DNA of 64,000 nucleotides from a virus (IMGVR_UViG_2623620512_000004:8375-72374); one strand, 5' to 3'; shown: positions 809 through 48,567, numbered from the stretch's first letter. Numbers and translations: made by a program. Notes: generated from the sequence alone by a model not told the origin.

Positions 809-1207
809 TTAATAGTGTGTCATTACTTCGTGAGCGGCCTGTGCGCACATATTTCTGAATGCACAGAACTCACCGAACTTCTTGATAACCTCGTTGTCGA
901 GGGCTTCCTTGAACTTGGCCCAACTGCTTGCTCCTGCAGCAGCCTCAACGATGCTGTCAACGGCATTCATCAGCAGTCCGAACTCATCCTTCTGTGCGAA
1001 GCCTGCCTCAATCAGCTGCGACTTGATGTGGCCGTAGTCGATTTGGTGGTCAATCTCCACAGGGATGAAGGAATAACCTTGAACCTCATTGCCCTGCTCA
1101 TCGGTCTGGGCTTCTTGTTTGATGTCAAGGCTAACGATACGGTTGGCCTTGTCATAGACTGGAGGGCAAATCTCACTCCAACGTCTCTGCAAATTTCCTG
1201 TAATCAT
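809..1207 (-). CDS. Hypothetical phage protein directly downstream of the RT (possible tail-fibre chaperone; not recognisably Avd)
   Basis: 132-aa ORF, tightly packed between the RT and the tail fibre gene. Confidence 0.55.
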   Translation of the reverse strand: MITGNLQRRWSEICPPVYDKANRIVSLDIKQEAQTDEQGNEVQGYSFIPVEIDHQIDYGHIKSQLIEAGFAQKDEFGLLMNAVDSIVEAAAGASSWAKFKEALDNEVIKKFGEFCAFRNMCAQAAHEVMTHY

Positions 1208-2653: not shown

Positions 2654-2871
2654 TCTGTTCGCTTGCTATCGTTTCTATGTGAAGCGTTCAAATCCATTAC
2701 TGGCTTACTAACGTCACGGGCGGGACGGCTGACCGTACACCGCGCAAGGTGAATGTTGTTCCGACCCAACACGTGCTATACATACGCACACGCTGCCGAG
2801 GCTCCAGGTACTCGGGTGTTTTCCCATGACGCAGTACTGACACCCTTATTGTTTTCTTGACTAACGTAGTT

Positions 2872-2980
2872 AGGCGAGCCGAGATGTTCGAGTTCGAGTT
2901 CGACCAAGCGTTGTTCGAGTTCGCATAAGCGAGACCGCAATTCGCACCGTTGTTCGAGTTACCGCCAATGAGCCACAGCT
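2872..2980 (-). ncRNA. DGR template repeat (TR)
   Basis: AAC-rich 109-nt repeat; differs from 3159-3267 at 16 positions, all of them adenines of the - strand TR. Confidence 0.95.
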
Positions 2981-3068
2981 TCACTACCTTTATGCCTACC
3001 ATCGGAGTTATGGTTTTTTCTGTTGTTGACTTACAGGGATTGTTTAACTTTCTGTTAGTGGAGTGATG

Positions 3069-3088
3069 GCAGGGGGGAAACCCCCTGC
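3069..3088. promoter_or_regulatory. DGR target-recognition hairpin/cruciform downstream of VR1
   Basis: GCAGGGGG-GAAA-CCCCCTGC: an 8-bp GC-rich stem with a 4-nt loop just after the target stop codon, the same geometry as the Bordetella BPP-1 hairpin. Confidence 0.85.
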
Positions 3089-3097
3089 ACCCCCTCC

Positions 3098-4432
3098 TTA
3101 CGAATTGAGTTCAATTAGTCTCTGGATAGACACCTTCTGCACGTTGCCATAGTATGCAAGGCGAGCCGAGAGGCGCGAGGCCGAGGCCGACCAAGCGTTG
3201 CTCGAGAGCGCATAAGCGAGACCGCAAGCCGCACCGTAGCTCGAGTCACCGCCAACGAGCCACAGCTGACCATTAGCATCATACCAGAAGTTATCGCCAT
3301 AGGAGATACCAGAGATAGATTGCTTCGGAATCATATAGACACCTTGGCCTTCCTCTGAGGCGATAATGTTCATGGCCCATACGGCACTTGTAGGACGTGT
3401 CAGCTTAACATGGTCGATGTTAGCGAAGGTGTCCGCTGTAGGAGTGCCAGAAGGCATAGTGTTACCTCTCCAGAAGTAAACATCAGTACCTACAGAACAC
3501 AAGCCCTGCAGCATTTCCCATTTCTGACCCCAAGGGTTCTCGAAGCCTGCTACGCTGACGCAGTGACAGGTGTTGCTGTTGGCATCCGTTGTCGCTACGT
3601 TGCCGTCATAGTCACCAAGGCTGAGAGTGATACCAGTCTTGATGTTCTTCTGGCCATCGAAGCCACCGCTGTTCTCTGTACCGTCCAGACCGACACCCCA
3701 GACAAGGGTATTGTCAGAGCCCTTACAGTTCTGGCTATCACGCCAAGCGTACTTAGCCATCATGTGGAACAGGAGGTGGTTACGGAAGTCCAGACCTGCG
3801 AGACCGTGGTTCTTCGAGCGTAACTGTGCCTTATCCCAGAAGCCTTTGACGGTCTGGCTGTCAGCAGTGACAACACCGGGCAACGAGCGAAGTTTGCCGT
3901 CCACGATGGAGCACTTGAACTTGCCGACCACCAACTGAGGAATCTCATAGCCGCCAGGCAGTGGTACGAGTGACAGCCAGAGACGCTGCACGGTGGTAGC
4001 ACCGATAGTCTTTGTCTGCACACGGCCATAGGTCTTAGGAACAATCTTCATGAAGTCGCAGTTGGCGAGAGAGGAAATGACAGTGCCATCGTTGTTCAAG
4101 AGAGACATACCCTCTTCCGAAAAGCGGCCGTCATTGCGGTTCAGCACAGCACAGTTGCCGTTGGCATCCATGATGACAGAGACAGCGGAATCCTCCAATA
4201 ACTGCCTCATGTGCATATTACCGCCTACGTCTACCCTTGTGCTGCCAAGGCTCGAAGCCTTGTTGACATCAATGTAGAACGCAAGGTCATTCAAAACTTC
4301 CTCATCGTTGTCGTTGAGGTGTTGACGGAACTCTTCGATGGTCATCTGTCCGACTTTACCACCGAAGTTTCCGAAGATACTGTTTCCGTCACTCATGGAG
4401 TGAACGAAATCCGCATTGATTAACTTTTTCAT
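3098..4432 (-). CDS. DGR target 1: putative receptor-binding/tail protein with a C-type-lectin-like C-terminal domain
   Basis: GFENPWGQKWEML and GG...G..CGL......SARL motifs; contains VR1; lies in the tail module. Confidence 0.85.
   Translation of the reverse strand: MKKLINADFVHSMSDGNSIFGNFGGKVGQMTIEEFRQHLNDNDEEVLNDLAFYIDVNKASSLGSTRVDVGGNMHMRQLLEDSAVSVIMDANGNCAVLNRNDGRFSEEGMSLLNNDGTVISSLANCDFMKIVPKTYGRVQTKTIGATTVQRLWLSLVPLPGGYEIPQLVVGKFKCSIVDGKLRSLPGVVTADSQTVKGFWDKAQLRSKNHGLAGLDFRNHLLFHMMAKYAWRDSQNCKGSDNTLVWGVGLDGTENSGGFDGQKNIKTGITLSLGDYDGNVATTDANSNTCHCVSVAGFENPWGQKWEMLQGLCSVGTDVYFWRGNTMPSGTPTADTFANIDHVKLTRPTSAVWAMNIIASEEGQGVYMIPKQSISGISYGDNFWYDANGQLWLVGGDSSYGAACGLAYALSSNAWSASASRLSARLAYYGNVQKVSIQRLIELNS
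3159..3267 (-). repeat. DGR variable repeat 1 (VR1)
   Basis: 109-nt copy of TR with 16 adenine-specific substitutions, at the 3' end of 3098..4432. Confidence 0.95.
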
Positions 4433-24753: not shown

Positions 24754-26943
24754 TCAATTATCCAGAATTTCCTTCAAAATCTTGTATCTGTTGGGGAACA
24801 TCTTCTTGAACCATCCTCTGTCTAAGTGATACCATTCCATTGATTCAGCAAAGTCCTCGGATGCAGAGTTTTCTCCATAGACAGTAGGAGAAGCGAGGTT
24901 ACTTTTCTTCTGGTCGAGAGACATAGCTTCACTCCACCTTTTTCTTCCGCTTACAGAGTGCATCATCCTGTCAATATTGTGGCCTGTCTCATGGTAGAGA
25001 GTATTCCTTGCTGTCGTAACCTCTCCAACGCTGCCTGCCGCTTCTGATGCAGTGTTGCGATAGAAGGTAACAACACCATCACCTCCAGTTGCAAATGAAT
25101 TGGTGAAATCCTTATAAACTTTCTTCCAATACACATCGTCTGGATTCTCGAAGTCTGCCAGATGCACCTCCTTGATGGATGCCTGCAACTTATTTGGCAA
25201 CTGTTCGATTGCTTCTGCTATCTGATATGGTGTGAAGTGTTGGCCATCAGTATTCAAGTCCTCTGGAACGTATATCTTAATACCTCCCCTTGTCTCATAT
25301 ATTGTGCAGTTTCTCTTTGTTCCTTTTATAGAGAAACCATCAACACGACCAACATTTCTGGCAGTATCTTCGTTGGCATTCTTGGAAACCTTCTTGGTAT
25401 AAGACTTAGTAGTGCTGTTGATAGTCTTGACGTCAGAAGTAAAGATGTAACTCTCCCATTTGTCTTTGAGGCCGCTTACAGTTTTCTTCATCTGGGTAAT
25501 AGCGGTTTTCTTTATTGCCATTACGTCTATAGGCTTGGCTTTGTACCATTCGTCTAACACTGAGATTGTTTCCTTGCCAACTTCACTATACAGCTTCGCC
25601 TGTGACCTCAACTGGCCAATCGTTCTGATTTTAGAGTTATACGCTTCTGCCTTTTCTATTACCTTTGCTTTGGCGGCTTCGTATTTCTCTTCCCATCCAA
25701 CAATATCATAGACTTTGTTTATCTTCAAATCAGATGTGGCAATCCATGTTTCAAAGTCGGATATGTTGACACCGTACTCCTTGGCATTTCGTCTGAGACT
25801 TGACAGGGACCAGTTTTCTCCTGTTTCGTATATTATCCTTCTGTTATTCGCTGCTCTGGTGATTCTTTCAATATCCTCCTTTGTCCTTGCAGCATGGCGT
25901 ATGGCCGCTGCATCCTTTGGCGTATATTTCAAATACTGAGGGTTGTCCTTGATGAAGTAGGGAAGCGTACCTCTATCCTCTGCATCCTCAATTCGTTTCC
26001 TATTACTTACTATCCATTCCTTGTAGTTCTTGGGAACATCAGTAATCATGTCCGGCTTCTCTCCTTCATCCTCCATGTTCCAGTACTCATCCTCGCTCAT
26101 GATGATGGGGATGGCATAGCACATATCGTTAGGGTGCCAACCAGTCCAGACAAAATCCTTCGGGTACTTGCCTGCCAATGAATCACAGATGTCATGTGCA
26201 GGATGGCTACCACTCAACTTTATCTCATAGCCTGTGATGAAGTCAAACTGCTTCCAACGCTCCTGCTCGGCAGTGCGATAGGCCATGTTGATTTCAGATC
26301 GTGCCAGACGGATGCTTCGATACTCGCAGTCATGGATATTCGCTGCCTTGCCGTAGGTTTCCCAATAGTCATGCTGTAGTGAAGGGTAGTCCTGCAGGTA
26401 CTTTGAGAGACGTTTTGACAACGTTATAGCCGACATTCCCTTCTCGATGGCATTGCTGATGGTGCAGGAAATTGCGGCCTCTGTTTCCCTCGTATATTCG
26501 TCAGCCTGTCCCCAGAGTTTGGCAGACAGATTCATTCCTCTGTCTCTGCGGTTCTGGAAGGCTTTGAGGGCATCACTGTTCGTCTGGTAGTACTTCTTGA
26601 AACGCTTGCCGTGTACCTGCGCCCGATAGTGCTTCAATACCTTGTTGGCCAACATATCCTGTATGAGGTTGGACTGCCGCCATTCCTCACCAGTGCCACG
26701 CATGATGACAGTCTGCAACTCACCAACGAACTGCGCCTGTATGTCCTTGACAGTCTCTCCTAACTCTGGATAGTTGCGGAAGAAAAATTCCGATGAGCCA
26801 TCATAACCAGAATCAATGGCCAACTCTGCTACTCGCCTGTTGGCAATATCATATATGCTCTGAACCTGCATGACATATTGTGTCAATCTGGAGTTCAGAG
26901 CATTATACGCTTTCTTCTGGTTCGGTGTCCTTACTCTTGCCAT
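24754..26943 (-). CDS. MuF-like minor head protein with a C-terminal zincin metallopeptidase domain
   Basis: RLARSEINMAYR, ICDSLAG and WHPNDMC MuF motifs; C-terminal HETGH...EDFAES. Confidence 0.85.
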   Translation of the reverse strand: MARVRTPNQKKAYNALNSRLTQYVMQVQSIYDIANRRVAELAIDSGYDGSSEFFFRNYPELGETVKDIQAQFVGELQTVIMRGTGEEWRQSNLIQDMLANKVLKHYRAQVHGKRFKKYYQTNSDALKAFQNRRDRGMNLSAKLWGQADEYTRETEAAISCTISNAIEKGMSAITLSKRLSKYLQDYPSLQHDYWETYGKAANIHDCEYRSIRLARSEINMAYRTAEQERWKQFDFITGYEIKLSGSHPAHDICDSLAGKYPKDFVWTGWHPNDMCYAIPIIMSEDEYWNMEDEGEKPDMITDVPKNYKEWIVSNRKRIEDAEDRGTLPYFIKDNPQYLKYTPKDAAAIRHAARTKEDIERITRAANNRRIIYETGENWSLSSLRRNAKEYGVNISDFETWIATSDLKINKVYDIVGWEEKYEAAKAKVIEKAEAYNSKIRTIGQLRSQAKLYSEVGKETISVLDEWYKAKPIDVMAIKKTAITQMKKTVSGLKDKWESYIFTSDVKTINSTTKSYTKKVSKNANEDTARNVGRVDGFSIKGTKRNCTIYETRGGIKIYVPEDLNTDGQHFTPYQIAEAIEQLPNKLQASIKEVHLADFENPDDVYWKKVYKDFTNSFATGGDGVVTFYRNTASEAAGSVGEVTTARNTLYHETGHNIDRMMHSVSGRKRWSEAMSLDQKKSNLASPTVYGENSASEDFAESMEWYHLDRGWFKKMFPNRYKILKEILDN

Positions 26944-33413: not shown

Positions 33414-34415
33414 TCATGCCATCTTTACGAGTTCAACCTTTTCCTTACTTACCACTTCGAGAATCATCTGCACGGCCTTGTTGACATCTGCCAGGACAGA
33501 GACGATAAACTTTGGCTCCTTGTGGAGCGCACTTATCCATGAATCCAGATAACAGGCATTGTTATCCATCAGCTTCGGGTCGAAGCCTAACACCTGACCG
33601 ATGATGGCCGCTGACAGTTCGGCAACCAGTTCTTCCTTCGCATACTCCTTGGAGGCGAAAGCGTTTCCCTTACCTCTGGCCAGTCGGCTTTCATGGCCAG
33701 TGGAGTGAGCCATTTCGTGTAGCAGGACATCATAGAATCGCATTCCGCTGAGATACTTAGCCTCATCACTGGAACTGTCATAGAACTGTGTTTTCATGGG
33801 AACGTGTATCTCATCCTTTGACGGACGGTAGAACGCTTCGTTGGACGGCTTCTGGTAGTGGATAGGGCAAAGCCACTTCTGACCAGAGAGCATATCATCT
33901 ATATCTGCATTCTCATACATTCCGAACGTGTCCGTTGGCGGTTCTGCGACTTGGAACTTCTTTTTCAGTTTCTCGATAACCTTGGGTGCTGCCTCTTCAA
34001 GGTTGGTCTGGCTGATGTTAAACACGTTGTACGACTTCAACACAGGGTAGTACGTACACTGCTTTCTCTCTTCCATTGACATGTCATCAATGTTCTCTAC
34101 CTTGGTACCATCGGCCTTCTTATAGATAAGCCTCCAGTACAGTACTGGGAATGATTCTGCACCCTTGTTGATATTGCCTCCGAGTTCCTTAATCTGGTGG
34201 AACGTGGCGAACACTGGGTACTTCCAGTCATTCATGCTTGACAGCAGGAGCAGAAGGAACGAGTTCGTGCCGTTGTACTCACTGCCTCTGAGGTTGATAG
34301 GCATATCACCGAAGGTCGTACCTATCCAACCTTTCTTCCAGTCAGATGCTTTCATCTGCTTCATTCGCTCGATAATCATATCTGCGAACTTCTCTACTAC
34401 TAATTCCGATTTCAT
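33414..34415 (-). CDS. ardC: ArdC-like antirestriction protein (ssDNA-binding domain plus zincin)
   Basis: YNGTN..LL, TFHQIKELGG.I.KG, YNVFNISQ, HEMAHSTGH..RL, YAKEELVAEL and YLDSW motifs. Confidence 0.85.
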   Translation of the reverse strand: MKSELVVEKFADMIIERMKQMKASDWKKGWIGTTFGDMPINLRGSEYNGTNSFLLLLLSSMNDWKYPVFATFHQIKELGGNINKGAESFPVLYWRLIYKKADGTKVENIDDMSMEERKQCTYYPVLKSYNVFNISQTNLEEAAPKVIEKLKKKFQVAEPPTDTFGMYENADIDDMLSGQKWLCPIHYQKPSNEAFYRPSKDEIHVPMKTQFYDSSSDEAKYLSGMRFYDVLLHEMAHSTGHESRLARGKGNAFASKEYAKEELVAELSAAIIGQVLGFDPKLMDNNACYLDSWISALHKEPKFIVSVLADVNKAVQMILEVVSKEKVELVKMA

Positions 34416-39128: not shown

Positions 39129-39863
39129 TCAGCGTTTTATGTTTATCTTCGCTTGGTTCTTGCGAACGTCATACGAGTAGTACTTACCCCATTTGTTTTC
39201 CATAGCCAGACGGCCTTGATAGGTCTCTTCTCTGGTGTTGGTCTCTCCACCGCTGTTGACCTCCATCTGACCTGCATCAGACAGGAAATACTTTGGCTGT
39301 AGAGTGATGCGGTTGAGCAACATTTCCTGCATGGCCATATCAATATCCGATGAGGCCATATCCTTGCAGTCGTACTTGGCTTTGAGGCAATTCTTGTTGA
39401 CCCATCGACAATGACCGGGCATTCCTTTGAAGTTCCACTCCTTGTCATAGGCGAAGAGCGTTTTCTGGGGGCCGTCATACGCAAGACCGAGATCCAAATC
39501 AACTAACATCTGGGCTATTCGCTCCACCTCCGCTGTGACGGTCTCTACAGGATTGATGAAGTTTGCGCTGTCTATCGGCAACCAGTTATTCATCCTGTAG
39601 ATGAAGCGAGTGATGTCATCATCCGCAATGAATATAACATCTTCTGGGGTGTTCCAGATAGTCCACCATAGCGTATCCATGAAGTTCCAGACAGGACAAT
39701 CCTTGGGAATGATGAGCAGGTTATCCACTCCTGCCTCCCTGTACTTGTCTGCCTCTTCCTCTCTGACCACATACGTACAGTACTCGAACAAGTCCTTGGT
39801 AACGATGCGGTCATACCTCTGGTAGGACATGACGTAGATGTTAAAGGAAATACCTGCTGTCAT
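39129..39863 (-). CDS. GT-A fold glycosyltransferase (TET-associated/phage DNA glycosyltransferase-like)
   Basis: IYVMSYQR, YVVREEE..KY, FIADDDI (DxD), SDIDM..Q and GG motifs. Confidence 0.7.
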   Translation of the reverse strand: MTAGISFNIYVMSYQRYDRIVTKDLFEYCTYVVREEEADKYREAGVDNLLIIPKDCPVWNFMDTLWWTIWNTPEDVIFIADDDITRFIYRMNNWLPIDSANFINPVETVTAEVERIAQMLVDLDLGLAYDGPQKTLFAYDKEWNFKGMPGHCRWVNKNCLKAKYDCKDMASSDIDMAMQEMLLNRITLQPKYFLSDAGQMEVNSGGETNTREETYQGRLAMENKWGKYYSYDVRKNQAKINIKR

Positions 39864-40875
39864 AGAACTTCTTCATCTTAAGTCCAAACTCGATTTTCTG
39901 GAACTGGCCAATATCAGAATAGTCACCCAACAGGTTCTTGCAGCGAAGGTAGAGCATATTCACTCCTGCCTTCCAGACGAACGGCAGCGAGGCGTTCACT
40001 CTGGGGTTCACCTCCAACAGTACAACCCATCCTTCTGGAGTGATGCGGAAGTCGAAACAGGCGTTTCCGTCAAGGTCGAGTTCCTTAACCAGTTTCTCCA
40101 CTATCTCGTAGGCTTGCTGATTGTAGGCTATCTCTCCGTCAATGATGGCACCATAGGACATCTGATGACCGATGTAGCCAACGATATGAGTAACCTTTCC
40201 CTTGACTGCCAGGACGCTTACTGAATAGTCCTTACCATCAACGTACTCCTGCAGGATAACAGTTGTCTTTCTCTGACAAAGGACTTCACAGAGGTCATCC
40301 ATGCTGATATATCGGTTCTCTCCTAACTTGTTGAAGAGCGTGATGTCTCTGGCCTTCTCATCATCAACGATGGCGAAGCCGTTACCTCCTGCATGGTCTG
40401 ACAGCTTACAGCACATCTTATTACCAATGCGGATGGTTCGCAGGAAATCTACTGCGTCCGCATAACAGGTAGGTATCATCTGCTTCGGCATGAGCGAGGA
40501 ATAATGCTTCTGGAGTTCAATCTTATTATTCGCAACGGCAATACACTCTGGAGAGGCTACAGACACCATGATTCCTTGGTTCTCGAAGAAAGGCTTGTAT
40601 TTAGCCATCAGTTCAAGTTCTACGGTGGCCGTAGGGATAATGATGTCAATCTTCCACAATTCGCAGTAGTGCCGCAACAATTCCAGATACTTGCTGTCTG
40701 TAATCGGAGGAACTACAGCGCACCCTTCAACCATACCGACTGGCGGCAGGTTGTGAGGGTTGCAGTTGACGGCATACACATTGACGTTTACACCATCCTC
40801 ATTCTGTTTGAGGCTATCTATACGCTCCTTGACGTGGTTAGCACAACAAGTCAGCAGAACATTGAAATCTCTCAT
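39841..40875 (-). CDS. ATP-grasp enzyme (carbamoyl-phosphate-synthase-like)
   Basis: IDIIIPT..EL, ILQEYVDG.DYSV, LLEVNPR. Confidence 0.8.
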   Translation of the reverse strand: MRDFNVLLTCCANHVKERIDSLKQNEDGVNVNVYAVNCNPHNLPPVGMVEGCAVVPPITDSKYLELLRHYCELWKIDIIIPTATVELELMAKYKPFFENQGIMVSVASPECIAVANNKIELQKHYSSLMPKQMIPTCYADAVDFLRTIRIGNKMCCKLSDHAGGNGFAIVDDEKARDITLFNKLGENRYISMDDLCEVLCQRKTTVILQEYVDGKDYSVSVLAVKGKVTHIVGYIGHQMSYGAIIDGEIAYNQQAYEIVEKLVKELDLDGNACFDFRITPEGWVVLLEVNPRVNASLPFVWKAGVNMLYLRCKNLLGDYSDIGQFQKIEFGLKMKKFYDSRYFL

Positions 40876-41491: not shown

Positions 41492-41964
41492 ACGGTCTTT
41501 GTCATTTCAAATCTATGCACATTGGTATTCGTAAAGGACAGCCCTACACTGTAGAATCCAAGCGAACGTGCCACTCTGAATGATGGCAGGTTGTCCGAGT
41601 TTACCCAGATATACAGCAGGTCAAGGCCGAGCACGTCAAAGCCTATTTCCATAGCCTGTATGACGGCACGTTTGCAGATGCCCTTTCCCCACATATCCTT
41701 CCTCAGAATGTAGTAGCCGATGGCGGCTGTTCCGAAGCCAATCTGCTTCAAACTGACAACTCCAACAGCTACATTGTCTGCCATAATGGCAAACATTCGG
41801 TTCCTTGCGTCCTGCCCTCTGAATATGTAGCACTGCTCTTCTGTCTGGAGCGTTGCAGGTAAGGGAGTGTCGCAACTGGTGAACTTCCAGATTTCTGGAT
41901 CGTTCCTGTACTGCCATGTATCGGCAGCGTGTCGTTTCTCTAACGGTTCAATTCTGACTTCCAT
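41461..41964 (-). CDS. GNAT (RimJ/RimL-like) acetyltransferase
   Basis: YRNDPEIW, IGYYIL.K.MWGKGI, V.SDN.PS..V...LGF. Confidence 0.85.
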   Translation of the reverse strand: MEVRIEPLEKRHAADTWQYRNDPEIWKFTSCDTPLPATLQTEEQCYIFRGQDARNRMFAIMADNVAVGVVSLKQIGFGTAAIGYYILRKDMWGKGICKRAVIQAMEIGFDVLGLDLLYIWVNSDNLPSFRVARSLGFYSVGLSFTNTNVHRFEMTKTVWNSKKNELK

Positions 41965-43043
41965 AATTCCATTGCTCTTAAGATTATATCGTCCATATCG
42001 TAATACTTGTATTCTGCCAGCCTACCCCCAAAGATGACCTTCTCTTCTTTGTCGGCCAGTGCCTTGTATTGCTGATAGATGGCATTGTTCTTCTCATCAT
42101 TGACAGGGTAGTACGGCTCTCCTGTTTCCTTGATGGATGCAGGGTACTCTTCCGTGATGACTGTTTTCTTGACTGGCTCCTTGGGCTGTTGGAAATGGCG
42201 GTGCTCAACACGTCTGGTATAAGGTATTCCTCCCCAAGTCTCATTGACTACTGCCACTCCTTGATAGTTCTCTTCATCCAAGGTAAACTGATTGAAGCGA
42301 AGGGAACGGTATTCGAGTTCTCCAAACCTGTAGTCATAGAACTGGTCAATACGTCCTGTGAAAAGCACTCTGTCACACATATCAAAGACCTTTCCTTTTG
42401 CATCGAATAGGTCCAGTCCAGGAATGGCCTCTGAGCCTTCAAGAAGTTTGTTGATGAGGGAATTATATCCCCCATCGGGAATAAACTCGTAGCGGTCGTT
42501 AAAATAACGGTTATTGAACGTGAATCTGACTGGCAGGCGAGTAATGATGTTGGCAGGGAGTTTCGTACATGGCCGTCCCCATTGTTTCTCCGTGTAGCCC
42601 TTTATCAGCTTACGGTAGATGTCCTTGCCTACGAGCGAGATTGCCTTATCCTCCAAGTTCCGAATTTCCTTGATGCACTTGCTCTGTTCGGCTATCTTCT
42701 GCATTGCTTCCTGTGGAGTGACCACACCCCACATCTGGCAGAACGTGTTCATGTTGAACGGCATATTGTACATCTTACCCTTGTAGTGGGCCATCGGAGT
42801 ATTCACATAAGGATTGACCTTTACCAGAGAGGTGACAAACTTGAACACTTCCTCGCTGTCTGTGTGGAAAATGTGTGGGCCGTACTTATGCACAATGATA
42901 CCATCAACATTCTCACAATAGACATTGCCTCCGAGGTGCTGCCGCTTGTCAATGACAAGGCACGTCCTACCAGAATCCGTGGCCAGACGTGCGAAGGTGC
43001 TTCCGAAGAGACCTGCCCCTACTATCAGATAATCATATTTCAT
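41940..43043 (-). CDS. glf: UDP-galactopyranose mutase
   Basis: DYLIVGAGLFG, HKYGPHIFHT, YTEKQWG, EPYYPVND, GRLAEYKYYDMD. Confidence 0.95.
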   Translation of the reverse strand: MKYDYLIVGAGLFGSTFARLATDSGRTCLVIDKRQHLGGNVYCENVDGIIVHKYGPHIFHTDSEEVFKFVTSLVKVNPYVNTPMAHYKGKMYNMPFNMNTFCQMWGVVTPQEAMQKIAEQSKCIKEIRNLEDKAISLVGKDIYRKLIKGYTEKQWGRPCTKLPANIITRLPVRFTFNNRYFNDRYEFIPDGGYNSLINKLLEGSEAIPGLDLFDAKGKVFDMCDRVLFTGRIDQFYDYRFGELEYRSLRFNQFTLDEENYQGVAVVNETWGGIPYTRRVEHRHFQQPKEPVKKTVITEEYPASIKETGEPYYPVNDEKNNAIYQQYKALADKEEKVIFGGRLAEYKYYDMDDIILRAMELWKSELNR

Positions 43044-43548
43044 AGTTCTGTAACTTTGCTGCAAAGATAGGCATTTTTATTTGAATAACAAATACTTTTC
43101 ACACTTTTTGAGTTATTCAGAGGTCAAACAGCCATCCTTCGACTGCTTTTGGCTTGGGTGGATGGGTGCAAGAGACTCAACCATCATGCTCATTACACCA
43201 TTCGTAACGGATGAAGTAAGGACACTTATTCTGTCCGCTTCCAGAGTAACATTCATCATGTTCCAAGTCTCTTTCTCCAAAAGGACACACCATCACTTTC
43301 GGATGGCTTTTGTGATGTATTGTCGGCACATACGTAATCATATTTCAAAAATTTAGCGTCAACTGTATTGGTCTGGCAGGATGGGCGGCTTTCGTCCTCG
43401 CATAGATGGGACACTCATTCCTGTATGCACAGTTCCCTGCCTTTGCCTCAGAGAAACGCAACACCCGAACAACATTCCTATTGTCTTGTATGTTATTCCT
43501 GCGCCTTTCAATACGAAGAATGACACAAAATCATCTTGCTCTAATTTC

Positions 43549-46008: not shown

Positions 46009-46405
46009 TACTCTTCAATGCTTTTTGTAAGACTTCATCAATACATTCAGCAGCCCATCCAACGAGGTATGAGTGCATTTCATCATCACCAGTATCTAAA
46101 CCTTGGCCACAGGCCTTAAAGATGGCGTTCGCTACATGATCGGCTTCGTGGGCTATCGTCCCTACGGTCATTACCTCTGGCTTGTGCAACCAGACCAGAA
46201 TACCTCTCCAAGCATCCTTCTTCTCGATGACATACGGCAGCGTGATACAGTTGGAATCTTCCAGTTCGCTTTCGCTTATCTGGTAGTTGTCACAGTCTGG
46301 GTCTAAGAAGGTGTTTTCAATATCATCCTTGCAACCACCAAAGGCAACAAACAGCTTCCTTGGGAATGGCGTTGGCTTGAACTCAAACAATCTGAACTTT
46401 CCCAT
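46001..46405 (-). CDS. HExxH-motif hypothetical protein
   Basis: IAHEADH...DE.HSYLVGW. Confidence 0.65.
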   Translation of the reverse strand: MGKFRLFEFKPTPFPRKLFVAFGGCKDDIENTFLDPDCDNYQISESELEDSNCITLPYVIEKKDAWRGILVWLHKPEVMTVGTIAHEADHVANAIFKACGQGLDTGDDEMHSYLVGWAAECIDEVLQKALKSNG

Positions 46406-47013
46406 CAGTCAACCCTTTCTATACCGTAAACGTAAACATAGCCGTTCCTGTCCCATGTACCTTTGCCACACGTCTTATCAATGAGAGAGGCGAAAGCGTC
46501 TCTGGGTGTGGCAAACATTTCCGGAGTTCCGTAGTACTGGTATCGGACAACAGGATTCATATTGCAATCTATTACATCGTCTCTCCTGTAGATACCTTCT
46601 TCCAGGCACTCTTCATCAGAGATACATTTCAGCTGCTCAAACCTCACCTCCGTTATGCGGACATGATGAGGCATCAACTCAGCCTTGACATACATCTTGT
46701 TCGTGCAGCCGATGTGGTTCTGCTCGACCATTATGATGACCTCGTTCTCGATGCTCGTTGGCATATACTCTTCCTCCAACAGTTCCTTGTAACTCTGTTG
46801 GATGGCAACAATATCACCAACATTATAAGGACTTTTGCTGATGGCAAACTCTTCAAGGGAAAGGTAATCTTCCTTACCCTTCATTTCGTTGGCCACAACG
46901 TAGATGGCATACTGTTTCTCAACCTTCTTACCATCACGTCTGGTTTTCGTTTTGGTGCGAGAGAGTACGGCCCTTTGCAGACCGTACTTCTCATTGAACA
47001 TCATCTTCTTCAT
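46405..47013 (-). CDS. ASCH/PUA-like domain protein
   Basis: MMFN....AVL..TKTKTRR; ITEVRFEQL..IS.EECL.EGI; W..N.YVYVY. Confidence 0.7.
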   Translation of the reverse strand: MKKMMFNEKYGLQRAVLSRTKTKTRRDGKKVEKQYAIYVVANEMKGKEDYLSLEEFAISKSPYNVGDIVAIQQSYKELLEEEYMPTSIENEVIIMVEQNHIGCTNKMYVKAELMPHHVRITEVRFEQLKCISDEECLEEGIYRRDDVIDCNMNPVVRYQYYGTPEMFATPRDAFASLIDKTCGKGTWDRNGYVYVYGIERVD

Positions 47014-47261
47014 TTCAGCTTACTTATTGCATCGTCAAACACACCTCTCAGTCCGTTGCTGTAGCGATGGTTAAAGACGTGCTTTCTGAAATACTCAGAT
47101 ACGTCCTTATCCCAATAGCCGCTGTTGATAACAACCTTGACCCTTTTCTCCAGTTCTCGAATGACATTGGCATTATGCTTGTTCCTTCTGCTGACGTGTT
47201 CGTTCCAAAGTCTCTTCACGTCTTTCCATGAGCAGGGGATTTTGATTACAACCTCTTTCAT
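47010..47261 (-). CDS. Hypothetical protein
   Basis: ATGA-coupled 83-aa ORF. Confidence 0.5.
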   Translation of the reverse strand: MKEVVIKIPCSWKDVKRLWNEHVSRRNKHNANVIRELEKRVKVVINSGYWDKDVSEYFRKHVFNHRYSNGLRGVFDDAISKLK

Positions 47262-47866
47262 TTCTCTGCCTCCTTACGGTTGAATGGTCCTACATAGTCA
47301 GCCCAGATGGAAATGAACTGCTTGCCGAAGTAAACGGCCAGTTCCTCTGACTTGACAGCAAGGCGAGCCGAGACGCTCGAGTACGAGAACGACCAAGCGT
47401 CGTTCGAGTTCGCACAAGCGAGACCGCCATTCGCACCGTAGTACGAGCTACCGCCACCGAGCCACAGCGCACGGTCTTTCTTCCATTGCTCTGACTTGCC
47501 TTTCAGTTCCTCTTCCGTCCAGAGAGTAAACCAAGGGTACCAACGGTATTCATCAGTAGTAAACTGAGGCTCCCATCCTTCGTTGAGGGCGGCAGCGATA
47601 GTCTTTAACTTGATGTAGGCTACCTCATCTTTTTCCAAGAAGCATCGACTACCATCAATGGGTGACGAATAACGTAACTTGTAGAAATCTACAGGCTCGA
47701 AGCCGAGTACATGACAGGCATCCTCATAGGTCTTTACTCTCTCTGTGATGGGTAGCAAGGTGTCAATACCTTTAACCTTAACATCATACTTCTCTGCGAG
47801 TGCAATCATTTCTTTTGCGAACTCCTGTGCCTTTTCCTGTGGCACATCTAACTTTAACTCTTTCAT
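47258..47866 (-). CDS. DGR target 2 (remote): non-structural protein carrying VR2
   Basis: Start re-assigned to AGAGCA-ATG at 47866 (202 aa); ITERVKTYEDAC...ALNEGW.P...RWYPWF; its C-terminal region matches TR. Confidence 0.85.
   Translation of the reverse strand: MKELKLDVPQEKAQEFAKEMIALAEKYDVKVKGIDTLLPITERVKTYEDACHVLGFEPVDFYKLRYSSPIDGSRCFLEKDEVAYIKLKTIAAALNEGWEPQFTTDEYRWYPWFTLWTEEELKGKSEQWKKDRALWLGGGSSYYGANGGLACANSNDAWSFSYSSVSARLAVKSEELAVYFGKQFISIWADYVGPFNRKEAEK
47361..47468 (-). repeat. DGR variable repeat 2 (VR2)
   Basis: 108-nt ungapped match to TR with 13 mismatches, 11 of them at TR adenines. Confidence 0.9.
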
Positions 47867-47918
47867 TGCTCTATATTGGTTTAAACGTGCAGGGCGGTTA
47901 CTCCTGCGAATCCTATAA

Positions 47919-48287
47919 CTATCCAAACTGCTTTCTGGCTTCGACATATTCCTTATGCCATTGCTTACGTATCTTCTCACCGTCAACCTCTTTCAAGGCT
48001 CTGGTGAACAATCCAGTCAGTACGGCACCAAAGAGGATCGTGTTCTTATTCAGCTTCACGCCTCCTTGGCAGAGAGCGAGTTGGCCATAACGTCCATAGT
48101 GGTAGCCCTTGATGTCTGATACTCGCTGATGGTCTTTCAGCATTTCAACGCTCCAACAGGCACCAGAGTAGATTTTCTTCGTGCCGTAGTAGTCATTCGA
48201 ATAGCCGTTCTGCTGTGATACCAGACGTGCCTTTATCTCATAGTGGCCACAGTCGCTCAACAGGTAGATGTATCTGGGCTTAATCAT
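47919..48287 (-). CDS. Hypothetical protein
   Basis: 122-aa ORF in the island. Confidence 0.55.
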   Translation of the reverse strand: MIKPRYIYLLSDCGHYEIKARLVSQQNGYSNDYYGTKKIYSGACWSVEMLKDHQRVSDIKGYHYGRYGQLALCQGGVKLNKNTILFGAVLTGLFTRALKEVDGEKIRKQWHKEYVEARKQFG

Positions 48288-48567
48288 TTCTTCTGGCCTT
48301 TAGGTAAGCATCTATTGTATCAAATCCAAGCGACTGCACGTAGGCTTTACGCTTCTCAACAGTAGAGGCACACCGAGCACACACCATACAATCTGGCGTG
48401 AGTTTCTTCGGACTGCAAGGCTCATACATCTGGCTTTCGTCAATGACGATGACGCTGTGCCGTCTGCACTTGAAGGCGGCTTCATATTCAGCATCATCCT
48501 TGTTCTCGAAGGTGGGGCAGTGACATACACCGCCTAACTCATCGTTTCTTAATACATACAATTCCAT
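48280..48567 (-). CDS. Cys-rich hypothetical protein
   Basis: AGAGCA-ATG start. Confidence 0.55.
   Translation of the reverse strand: MELYVLRNDELGGVCHCPTFENKDDAEYEAAFKCRRHSVIVIDESQMYEPCSPKKLTPDCMVCARCASTVEKRKAYVQSLGFDTIDAYLKARRND

Follow-up and report, generated by a model that had tools for sequence, protein, structure and literature searches.

A small gene far from the RT as a very probable second target of a phage DGR

Introduction

Can a DGR that diversifies a phage tail protein also rewrite, from the same template (TR), a small gene far away from its RT, and what kind of protein would be varied there? This question is raised by a virus genome (IMGVR_UViG_2623620512_000004), of which a stretch of 64,000 nucleotides (8375-72374 of the record), in the following called the window, was analyzed. 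All positions are counted from the first letter of this stretch. In the BPP-1 system, the transfer of sequence from TR to the variable region (VR) of the target Mtd is adenine-specific, the codons of the TR are rich in AAY, and the repeats have a G+C-rich end with an IMH/IMH* difference. There, a single target lies beside the cassette, a hairpin is located downstream, an Avd gene is present, and the C-type lectin fold of the target has been solved. To our knowledge, a downstream hairpin or cruciform is not universal among DGRs.

For the 'Quimbyviridae', the consulted passages of Benler 2021 (Microbiome 9:78; PMC8008677) describe a DGR with two variable repeats, one adjoining tail fibre genes and the other located distally in a presumed non-structural protein. 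Genes for methyltransferases, a nuclease and a tRNA ligase are the neighbours of the distal target, for which a role in phage-host conflict was proposed. The passages of a further study (PMC12629997; Nature 2025) report a second VR, far from the RT and near counter-defence genes, for four prophage species. For LoVEphage, this study cites both Benler and Van Espen, so that LoVEphage and Quimbyvirus appear to be the same phage; the consulted text of Van Espen 2021 (PMC8525569) itself mentions a DGR for a crAss-like phage only. In cassettes with tentaclins, one TR diversifies two different gut-phage proteins according to the passages of PMC10743442 (Int J Mol Sci 2023;24:17324), and in those of PMC12636319 and PMC12694917 DGR targets are treated as tail proteins. 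As far as these passages go, the published accounts leave open what is gained by hypervarying a presumed non-virion protein.

Results and discussion

Components of the DGR

All parts of the DGR in the window are located on the minus strand. The RT gene (1220-2653) is a single intact ORF of 477 aa with matches to Pfam RVT_1 (E 1.2e-11) and phrog_1423 (E 5.5e-46), and it adjoins the TR (2872-2979). The TR contains 23 adenines and, in the reading frame of the VRs, ten AAY codons as well as the codons ATT, TAT and ATC; translated in this frame, it reads LWLIGGNSNNGANCGLAYANSNNAWSNSNSNISAR. For its 13 adenine codons, about 3.7e13 possible protein variants were calculated. In the 72,374-base virus record, three TR-like copies were found in total, namely the TR itself, a cassette-proximal variable region (VR1, 3159-3266) and a remote variable region (VR2, 47361-47468). 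VR1 is part of a gene of the tail module (3098-4432; 444 aa; phrog_5302 'tail protein', E 2.7e-17), which adjoins tail genes and the tape measure gene. VR2 covers codons 134-168 of a 202-aa gene (47258-47866, stop codon 47258-47260), the product of which matches phrog_11581. The distance from the RT to VR2 is 44.7 kb, close to the value of about 44 kb given in a sequence-only reading that preceded this analysis.

By Pfam and PHROG searches, no Avd-like accessory gene was recognized in the cassette, and the interval between VR1 and TR is too small for such a gene. Directly following the RT gene, an ORF of 132 aa (809-1207, minus strand) had no Pfam or PHROG match. Another ORF of 101 aa (2697-3002, minus strand) begins shortly before the TR and runs through it in the frame of the VRs; it probably represents the TR transcript region rather than a gene.

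Mismatches between TR and VRs

On the coding strand, VR2 aligns with the TR over 108 bases without gaps and with 13 mismatches, of which 11 lie at TR adenines (6 A>G and 5 A>T). With 23 adenines in the 108 bases of the TR, the hypergeometric probability of finding at least 11 of 13 mismatches on adenines is P=2.4e-7. In VR1, all mismatches with the TR (16/16) are at adenines (P=4.8e-14). When the 11 adenine changes of VR2 were compared with VR1, three agreed with the VR1 base, four concerned sites that are changed to a different base in VR1, and four were at sites unchanged in VR1; VR2 is accordingly no copy of VR1. The two remaining mismatches of VR2 are T>G changes at base 2 of codon 137 (ATT to GGT) and base 1 of codon 147 (TGC to GGC). 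Both are private to the window genome, the eight other members of its protein cluster having F137 and C147, and therefore the VR2 copy has drifted after the last rewriting or the changes are rare RT errors. The sequence-only reading had described the ungapped alignment with the same counts of mismatches, two of them off adenines, and had noted that the substitutions mostly differ from those in VR1; all of this was reproduced here, with three of the 11 being identical and eight different.

Natural variation of VR2 and VR1

Clustering at 90% protein identity placed the VR2 protein of the window in a group of nine members, its own sequence included. In this cluster, all TR-adenine codons vary (13/13), their columns containing 5.0 different residues on average; of the 189 other columns, only 15 are variable and contain two or three residues (Fisher P=3.7e-13). 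The nine proteins have eight distinct VR peptides. In a second cluster of the VR2 family, whose nine members are 79% identical to the query, 12 hypervariable columns coincide in position with those of the first cluster, and six more columns vary. At these 12 positions, K, E, Q, M and W are missing among all 216 residues in the 18 proteins of both clusters, a pattern characteristic of AAY codons that have been turned into NNY codons. In 14 near-identical VR1 proteins, serving as control, all 13 adenine codons vary as well and 13 distinct VR peptides occur. Judged from these alignments, the diversification of VR2 in natural relatives is as strong as that of the tail target VR1. Since both VRs vary side by side at adenine codons, the case of an invariant VR2 beside a varying VR1, which had been named as evidence against a second target, does not apply.

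The closest DNA relative of the VR2 gene is the locus L005 on a 33.6-kb IMG/VR fragment, the BLAST-aligned segments of which are 95-99% identical to the window. In an ungapped block of 778 bases, 18 of the 108 bases of VR2 differ between L005 and the window, 16 of them at TR adenines, the remaining two being the private T>G changes of the window; in the flanks of VR2, 17 of 670 bases differ. Compared with the TR of the window, VR2 of L005 has 16 mismatches, all at adenines (16/16).

The runs in which the window phage occurs are animal-gut samples, mostly bovine or sheep. Over positions 46400-48400, the window was compared with contigs of four animal-gut runs (assembled contigs, not raw reads). 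One contig of run X2 covers this stretch completely and has 68 differences in 2,001 bases. Among 40 of the 137 entries of this comparison, the VR2 sites 47374, 47383, 47401, 47410 and 47415 differ, and all five are TR-adenine sites. In run X4, two unlike contigs over VR2 were present (22 of 251 and 13 of 125 bases differing), both at low depth, which hints at heterogeneity of VR2 within the sample, though two strains could explain both contigs. VR1-bearing contigs of relatives were also mapped to 47358-47468 due to 85% likeness, so that the depth in this region is inflated and meaningless.

Targeting signals at the 3′ ends

At their 3′ ends, VR1 and VR2 read ...CGCCTTGC and the TR reads ...CGCCTAAC; given at greater length, the ends are ...CTCGGCTCGCCTTGC in both VRs and ...CTCGGCTCGCCTAAC in the TR. 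The IMH-like 3′ boundary of VR2 (47358-47372, minus strand) comprises the G+C-rich CTCGGCTCGCC and then TTGC, where the TR has TAAC. This G+C-rich end and the contrast of TTGC and TAAC recur for both VR1 and VR2 in two relatives (G005 and G003), and the counterpart in LoVEphage is TTGC in the VR and ATAC in the TR. The adenines of TAAC are invariant and the other TR adenines variable, which fits an IMH/IMH*-like boundary. Accordant with this pattern, the G+C-rich end together with TTGC/TAAC would be a putative IMH/IMH* pair, as had been suspected from CCTTGC in the VRs and CCTAAC in the TR.

A G+C hairpin past the stop codon of the VR1 gene (3069-3088, minus strand; z -3.11) reads GCAGGGGG-GAAA-CCCCCTGC when written on the plus strand, and has no counterpart at VR2. 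Hairpins following the VR1 gene are present in four of five phages, with z values of -3.65 in G005, -3.30 in G003 and -2.14 in G002; LoVEphage, with a value of 0.05, is without one. Besides that of the window, the sites are L032:811-930, L035:13284-13404 and L038:5581-5701. The hairpins have G+C-rich stems and A-rich loops of 3-4 nt, the loop being GAAA in three of the four and AAA in G003, and they may simply be terminators. After VR2, no significant structure was found in any of the five phages (z -0.52 in the window and -0.77, -0.46, +0.21 and -0.81 in the relatives), so that the lack of a GC hairpin after VR2, already noted for the window, extends to four relatives. As VR2 is as diversified as VR1, homing at VR2 apparently needs no downstream hairpin.

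Layout in related phages

In related phages, the VR of each family member was compared with its own TR near the RT; the distances given are start-to-start or estimated. Remote targets were found in G003 (about 30 kb; 12/12 mismatches between VR and TR at adenines), G002 (about 55 kb; 15/16), G005 (about 30 kb; 20/27), LoVEphage (MW660583.1; about 15 kb, VR in QVQ57199.1; 18/18), G006 (34 kb; 13/13), G007 (46 kb; 9/10, the exception being a T near the 3′ end) and G010 (45 kb; 9/9). As read from the alignment, the seven non-adenine mismatches of G005 are at the 5′ end, ahead of the start of the VR2/TR homology. Tandem family paralogues are located beside TR and RT in G008 (7/7) and in G009 (14/18), three of the four non-adenine mismatches of G009 falling past the G+C-rich end. 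Going by this gene order, the VR2 family supplies the local cassette target in G008 and G009. The two tandem paralogues were observed at G008:C1:16702-17497 and G009:C1:7324-8161 (loci L082 and L085). The RT is encoded on each of the five contigs G006-G010. With the window counted, the DGR targets a homologue of the small protein in each of 10 phage genomes (10/10), located far from the RT in eight and next to it in two; G001 and G004, which are fragments without TR, were left out of this count.

Between the window and LoVEphage, 8 of 108 ORFs match at E<=1e-5 (minus-strand ORFs of at least 70 aa). These encode the RT, the VR1 target, three tail proteins, the tape measure protein, a phrog_1365 protein and the VR2 protein, and at the same threshold no match was obtained for terminase, portal and major capsid. 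With the RT and both targets among the eight shared ORFs, the retroelement and its targets thus travel together on unrelated backbones.

The 202-aa protein and its family

The ORF of 202 aa starts with an ATG at 47866, a start shared by most homologues. The match to phrog_11581, a family of unknown function, has an E value of 4.6e-48 and extends over residues 23-192 of the protein and positions 27-191 of the 200 of the profile. The family comprises 2,856 proteins at E<=1e-3 and, in a separate search, 2,630 representatives at 50% clustering. Its members in BFVD are from sipho-, podo- and crAss-like gut viruses, and all are uncharacterized phage proteins. In the viral, metagenome and genome collections, homologues with more than 63% protein identity were not found. 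Pfam gave no match even at E 10, sequence and profile searches of the PDB gave only matches at chance level, and in the ESM Atlas only unnamed clusters of viruses and Bacteroidota were retrieved. The protein has no hydrophobic N-terminus and no membrane segment (maximal 19-residue hydropathy 0.67), in agreement with the earlier remark that a signal peptide is not evident.

A first AF2 model was poor (pLDDT 65.5) and had no Foldseek match. The second model, based on 115 diverse sequences, reached a pLDDT of 80.5 and a pTM of 0.75; it predicts a mostly helical scaffold and two confident helices after the VR, and residues 137-163 of the VR have pLDDT values below 50. For this model, no match at E<=1e-3 was found with Foldseek against the PDB, and the best structural match in a wide VIA-align search had a Z of 3.6. 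A C-type lectin fold was not recovered by Pfam, PDB profiles, Foldseek or VIA-align, with the pLDDT of the VR being <50; in the consulted passages of Benler 2021 (PMC8008677), a C-type lectin domain is assigned to the Quimbyvirus homologue by the authors' own analysis. Profile-profile comparison of the VR2 and VR1 families aligned 40 columns, corresponding to the VR alone, with a probability of 96.9%. Outside the VR, no homology of the scaffold to the tail target was detectable by profile-profile comparison and BLASTP. A common ancestry of the VR2 scaffold and the tail target was considered as well and was rejected, as the 40-column VR alone aligns.

Long forms of the family (about 340 aa) have an additional N-terminal domain, which is without Pfam match. 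L005 has the N-terminal half of the long form and the window has the short form, despite 95-99% identity of the aligned flanks. The N-terminal halves of the VR2 gene were not alignable between window positions 47591-47849 and L005:2580-3252. This points to a module swap within the VR2 gene, in which N-terminal halves would have been exchanged between near-identical phages.

Gene neighbourhood of VR2

In minus-strand order, genes for a helicase (53.7 kb), NinG (52.8 kb), a D12 adenine methylase (50.4 kb), an HNH nuclease (49.9 kb) and a MazG-like pyrophosphatase (49.2 kb) precede the VR2 gene (47.3-47.9 kb). It is followed by genes for a UDP-galactopyranose mutase (41.9 kb), an ATP-grasp enzyme (39.8 kb), the large terminase (36.1 kb), the portal (29.1 kb), the major head protein (19.1 kb) and the tape measure (10.9 kb), and then by tail genes, the VR1 target, TR and RT. 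The VR2 gene is not part of the head-tail block and precedes the terminase gene by 10 kb. The one reason for calling its product non-structural is this position outside the morphogenesis block.

Conservation of neighbours was inspected in 47 loci with a VR2 homologue, one of them being a LoVEphage stretch. An overlapping downstream gene of 83 aa, considered as a conserved partner, was seen in only 1 of the 47 loci and was discarded. A 202-aa phrog_874 neighbour of the VR2 gene recurs in 8 of the 47.

Mode of diversification and alternative explanations

We observed the repeats, their adenine bias, natural hypervariability and a two-target layout conserved among relatives, and VR2 is very probably a genuine second target of the single DGR of the window phage, rewritten in trans in a remote gene. 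In this mechanism, the RT (1220-2653) would copy the TR RNA (2872-2979, minus strand) and err at adenines. The cDNA would replace the homologous 108-base segment in the adjacent tail gene (VR1) and, in trans, also that of the 202-aa gene 44.7 kb away (VR2), and the replaced stretch would stop at the G+C-rich IMH-like boundary, where the VRs have TTGC and the TR has TAAC. The result would be 13 randomized codons in the conserved, helical scaffold of a large family of phage proteins that is a recurrent DGR target.

Chance, or a duplication or gene conversion of VR1 followed by normal divergence, is hardly credible as the source of the likeness between TR and VR2. The homology is indeed short (108 bases) and the two proteins have only the VR in common; however, the mismatches are restricted to adenines with P=2.4e-7, 8 of the 11 adenine substitutions in VR2 are unlike VR1, the same pattern is found in nine other genomes, and in near-identical relatives the variation keeps to adenine codons. 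It is also quite improbable, though of more weight, that VR2 is a relic, i.e., a region once rewritten by the DGR which is no longer homed in the provirus of the window and is now drifting. Such a decay would suit the two private non-adenine changes in VR2 as compared with none in VR1, the lack of a hairpin past VR2 and the classification of the virus record as provirus. Yet the hairpin is missing at VR2 in all five phages, in which VR2 is nevertheless fully adenine-diversified, and the RT ORF is intact. Codon 137 encodes F in the eight other cluster members (8/8), reads TTT in L005, and corresponds to codon 393 of VR1, which encodes F in 13 of 14 cluster members; in the window, this site is ATT in the TR, GTT in VR1 and GGT in VR2. 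Most simply, the TR of the window would have gained an adenine (TTT to ATT), and a later rewriting would have put G at this site in both VRs. The first G of GGT in VR2 is then the outcome of an adenine site in the derived ATT of the TR, and the suggestion of the sequence-only reading that targeting is possibly historical is weakened by this G at a derived TR adenine in both VRs. The RT is presumably active at present.

If VR2 is a genuine target, its product could still be an adhesin of the virion or the cell surface, for example a second receptor-binding or accessory adsorption protein, rather than an intracellular protein. We regard this as rather unlikely. All characterized phage DGR targets are virion binding proteins according to the passages of PMC12629997, PMC8008677 and PMC10743442, the family members of G008 and G009 adjoin TR and RT like ordinary cassette targets, and the VR peptide is common to the VR2 protein and the tail target. 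On the other hand, the neighbours of the VR2 gene in the window serve replication and modification, the LoVEphage homologue is encoded on the strand opposite to the structural genes, and the protein has neither signal peptide nor membrane segment, no homology to the tail target beyond the 40-column VR, and no convincing match to any solved chain, tail and fibre proteins included. The VR2 protein is presumably a non-virion ligand binder, and our leading guess for its role is phage-host conflict. Going by the position of its gene, it may be an early, intracellular protein, and the same position has led to the hypothesis of a counter-defence function as a binder of host defence proteins. From the earlier proposal that one template diversifies a virion adhesin and an intracellular early protein, one template with two targets is retained, namely the VR1 protein of the tail module and the small protein encoded far away (VR2), both hypervariable at adenines; the intracellular part keeps the rank of a hypothesis.

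Comparison with known systems

The DGR of the window resembles that of BPP-1 in its adenine-specific transfer, in its AAY-rich TR, and in the G+C-rich end, where VR and TR differ in the manner of IMH and IMH*. It differs from BPP-1 in that VR2 is remote, a hairpin is absent there, no Avd was recognized and a C-type lectin fold was not recovered. In the tentaclin cassettes, as described in the passages of PMC10743442, both targets lie within the cassette and both are receptor-binding proteins; tentaclins have an N-terminal C-lec domain and Ig domains, whereas the window protein has 202 aa and is predicted to be helical.

The closest parallel is LoVEphage or the 'Quimbyviridae', for which the consulted passages likewise describe one TR and two VRs, one on the tail side and one remote among methyltransferase and repair genes. 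The VR2 protein of the window is 43% identical to the distal target of LoVEphage, QVQ57199.1 (E 2e-33). The LoVEphage backbone is unlike that of the window (8/108 ORFs match), the distance from RT to target is about 15 kb in LoVEphage compared with 44.7 kb in the window, and the RT is one intact ORF in the window but frameshifted according to the passages of Benler 2021 (PMC8008677). The passages of PMC12629997 (Nature 2025) likewise contain a remote second VR near counter-defence genes such as that for a DNA methyltransferase; they do not analyze the second target with respect to protein family, structure or populations. Given the published layout and the 43% identity to the LoVEphage target, the window is a further example of a published arrangement, and the novelty that the sequence-only reading had implied is not upheld, because the passages of PMC8008677 and PMC12629997 already present the same arrangement and the same hypothesis. 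In the consulted passages of the cited papers, it is not stated that the small family is a DGR target in every genome examined, that the small protein and the tail target have the VR alone in common, that N-terminal parts are swapped among near-identical phages, or that a hairpin is absent past VR2 in all five phages. Figures or supplements of the cited papers may already contain an alignment of the LoVEphage VR2 or the family.

Significance of the remote target

The window provides an independent animal-gut example of a DGR by which, besides a tail protein, a non-structural protein encoded far away is diversified, and VR2 loci are natural cases of distant retrohoming without a downstream hairpin. 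As it serves as DGR target in all 10 genomes compared, which have several different backbones, and is diversified like the tail target, the family of the small protein is suited to ask what a phage gains by hypervarying a protein that is probably not in the virion. Its N-terminal part would be exchangeable, as forms of 200 and 340 aa occur in otherwise near-identical phages. Speculatively, the phrog_11581-type family might be a dedicated DGR-diversified intracellular binder resembling an antibody, with a constant helical scaffold, about 1e13 variable surfaces and an exchangeable N-terminal part, rewritten in trans without a hairpin, by which several gut-phage backbones would track and neutralize fast-changing host defence or takeover targets. 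We put this forward tentatively and consider it doubtful as a whole.

Further genes of the window

The UDP-galactopyranose mutase gene following VR2 is located at 41940-43064 (minus strand; GLF, E 2.7e-70) and that for the ATP-grasp enzyme at 39841-40875 (minus strand); both may be cell-envelope or sugar-modifying auxiliary genes. A head-morphogenesis protein of 729 aa (24754-26943, minus strand) also matches the PHROG 'Bxa ADP-ribosyl transferase' with residues 210-414 (E 1.2e-63). Between terminase and portal, a 333-aa protein (33414-34415, minus strand) matches an 'anti-restriction protein' PHROG with an E value of 1.2e-56.
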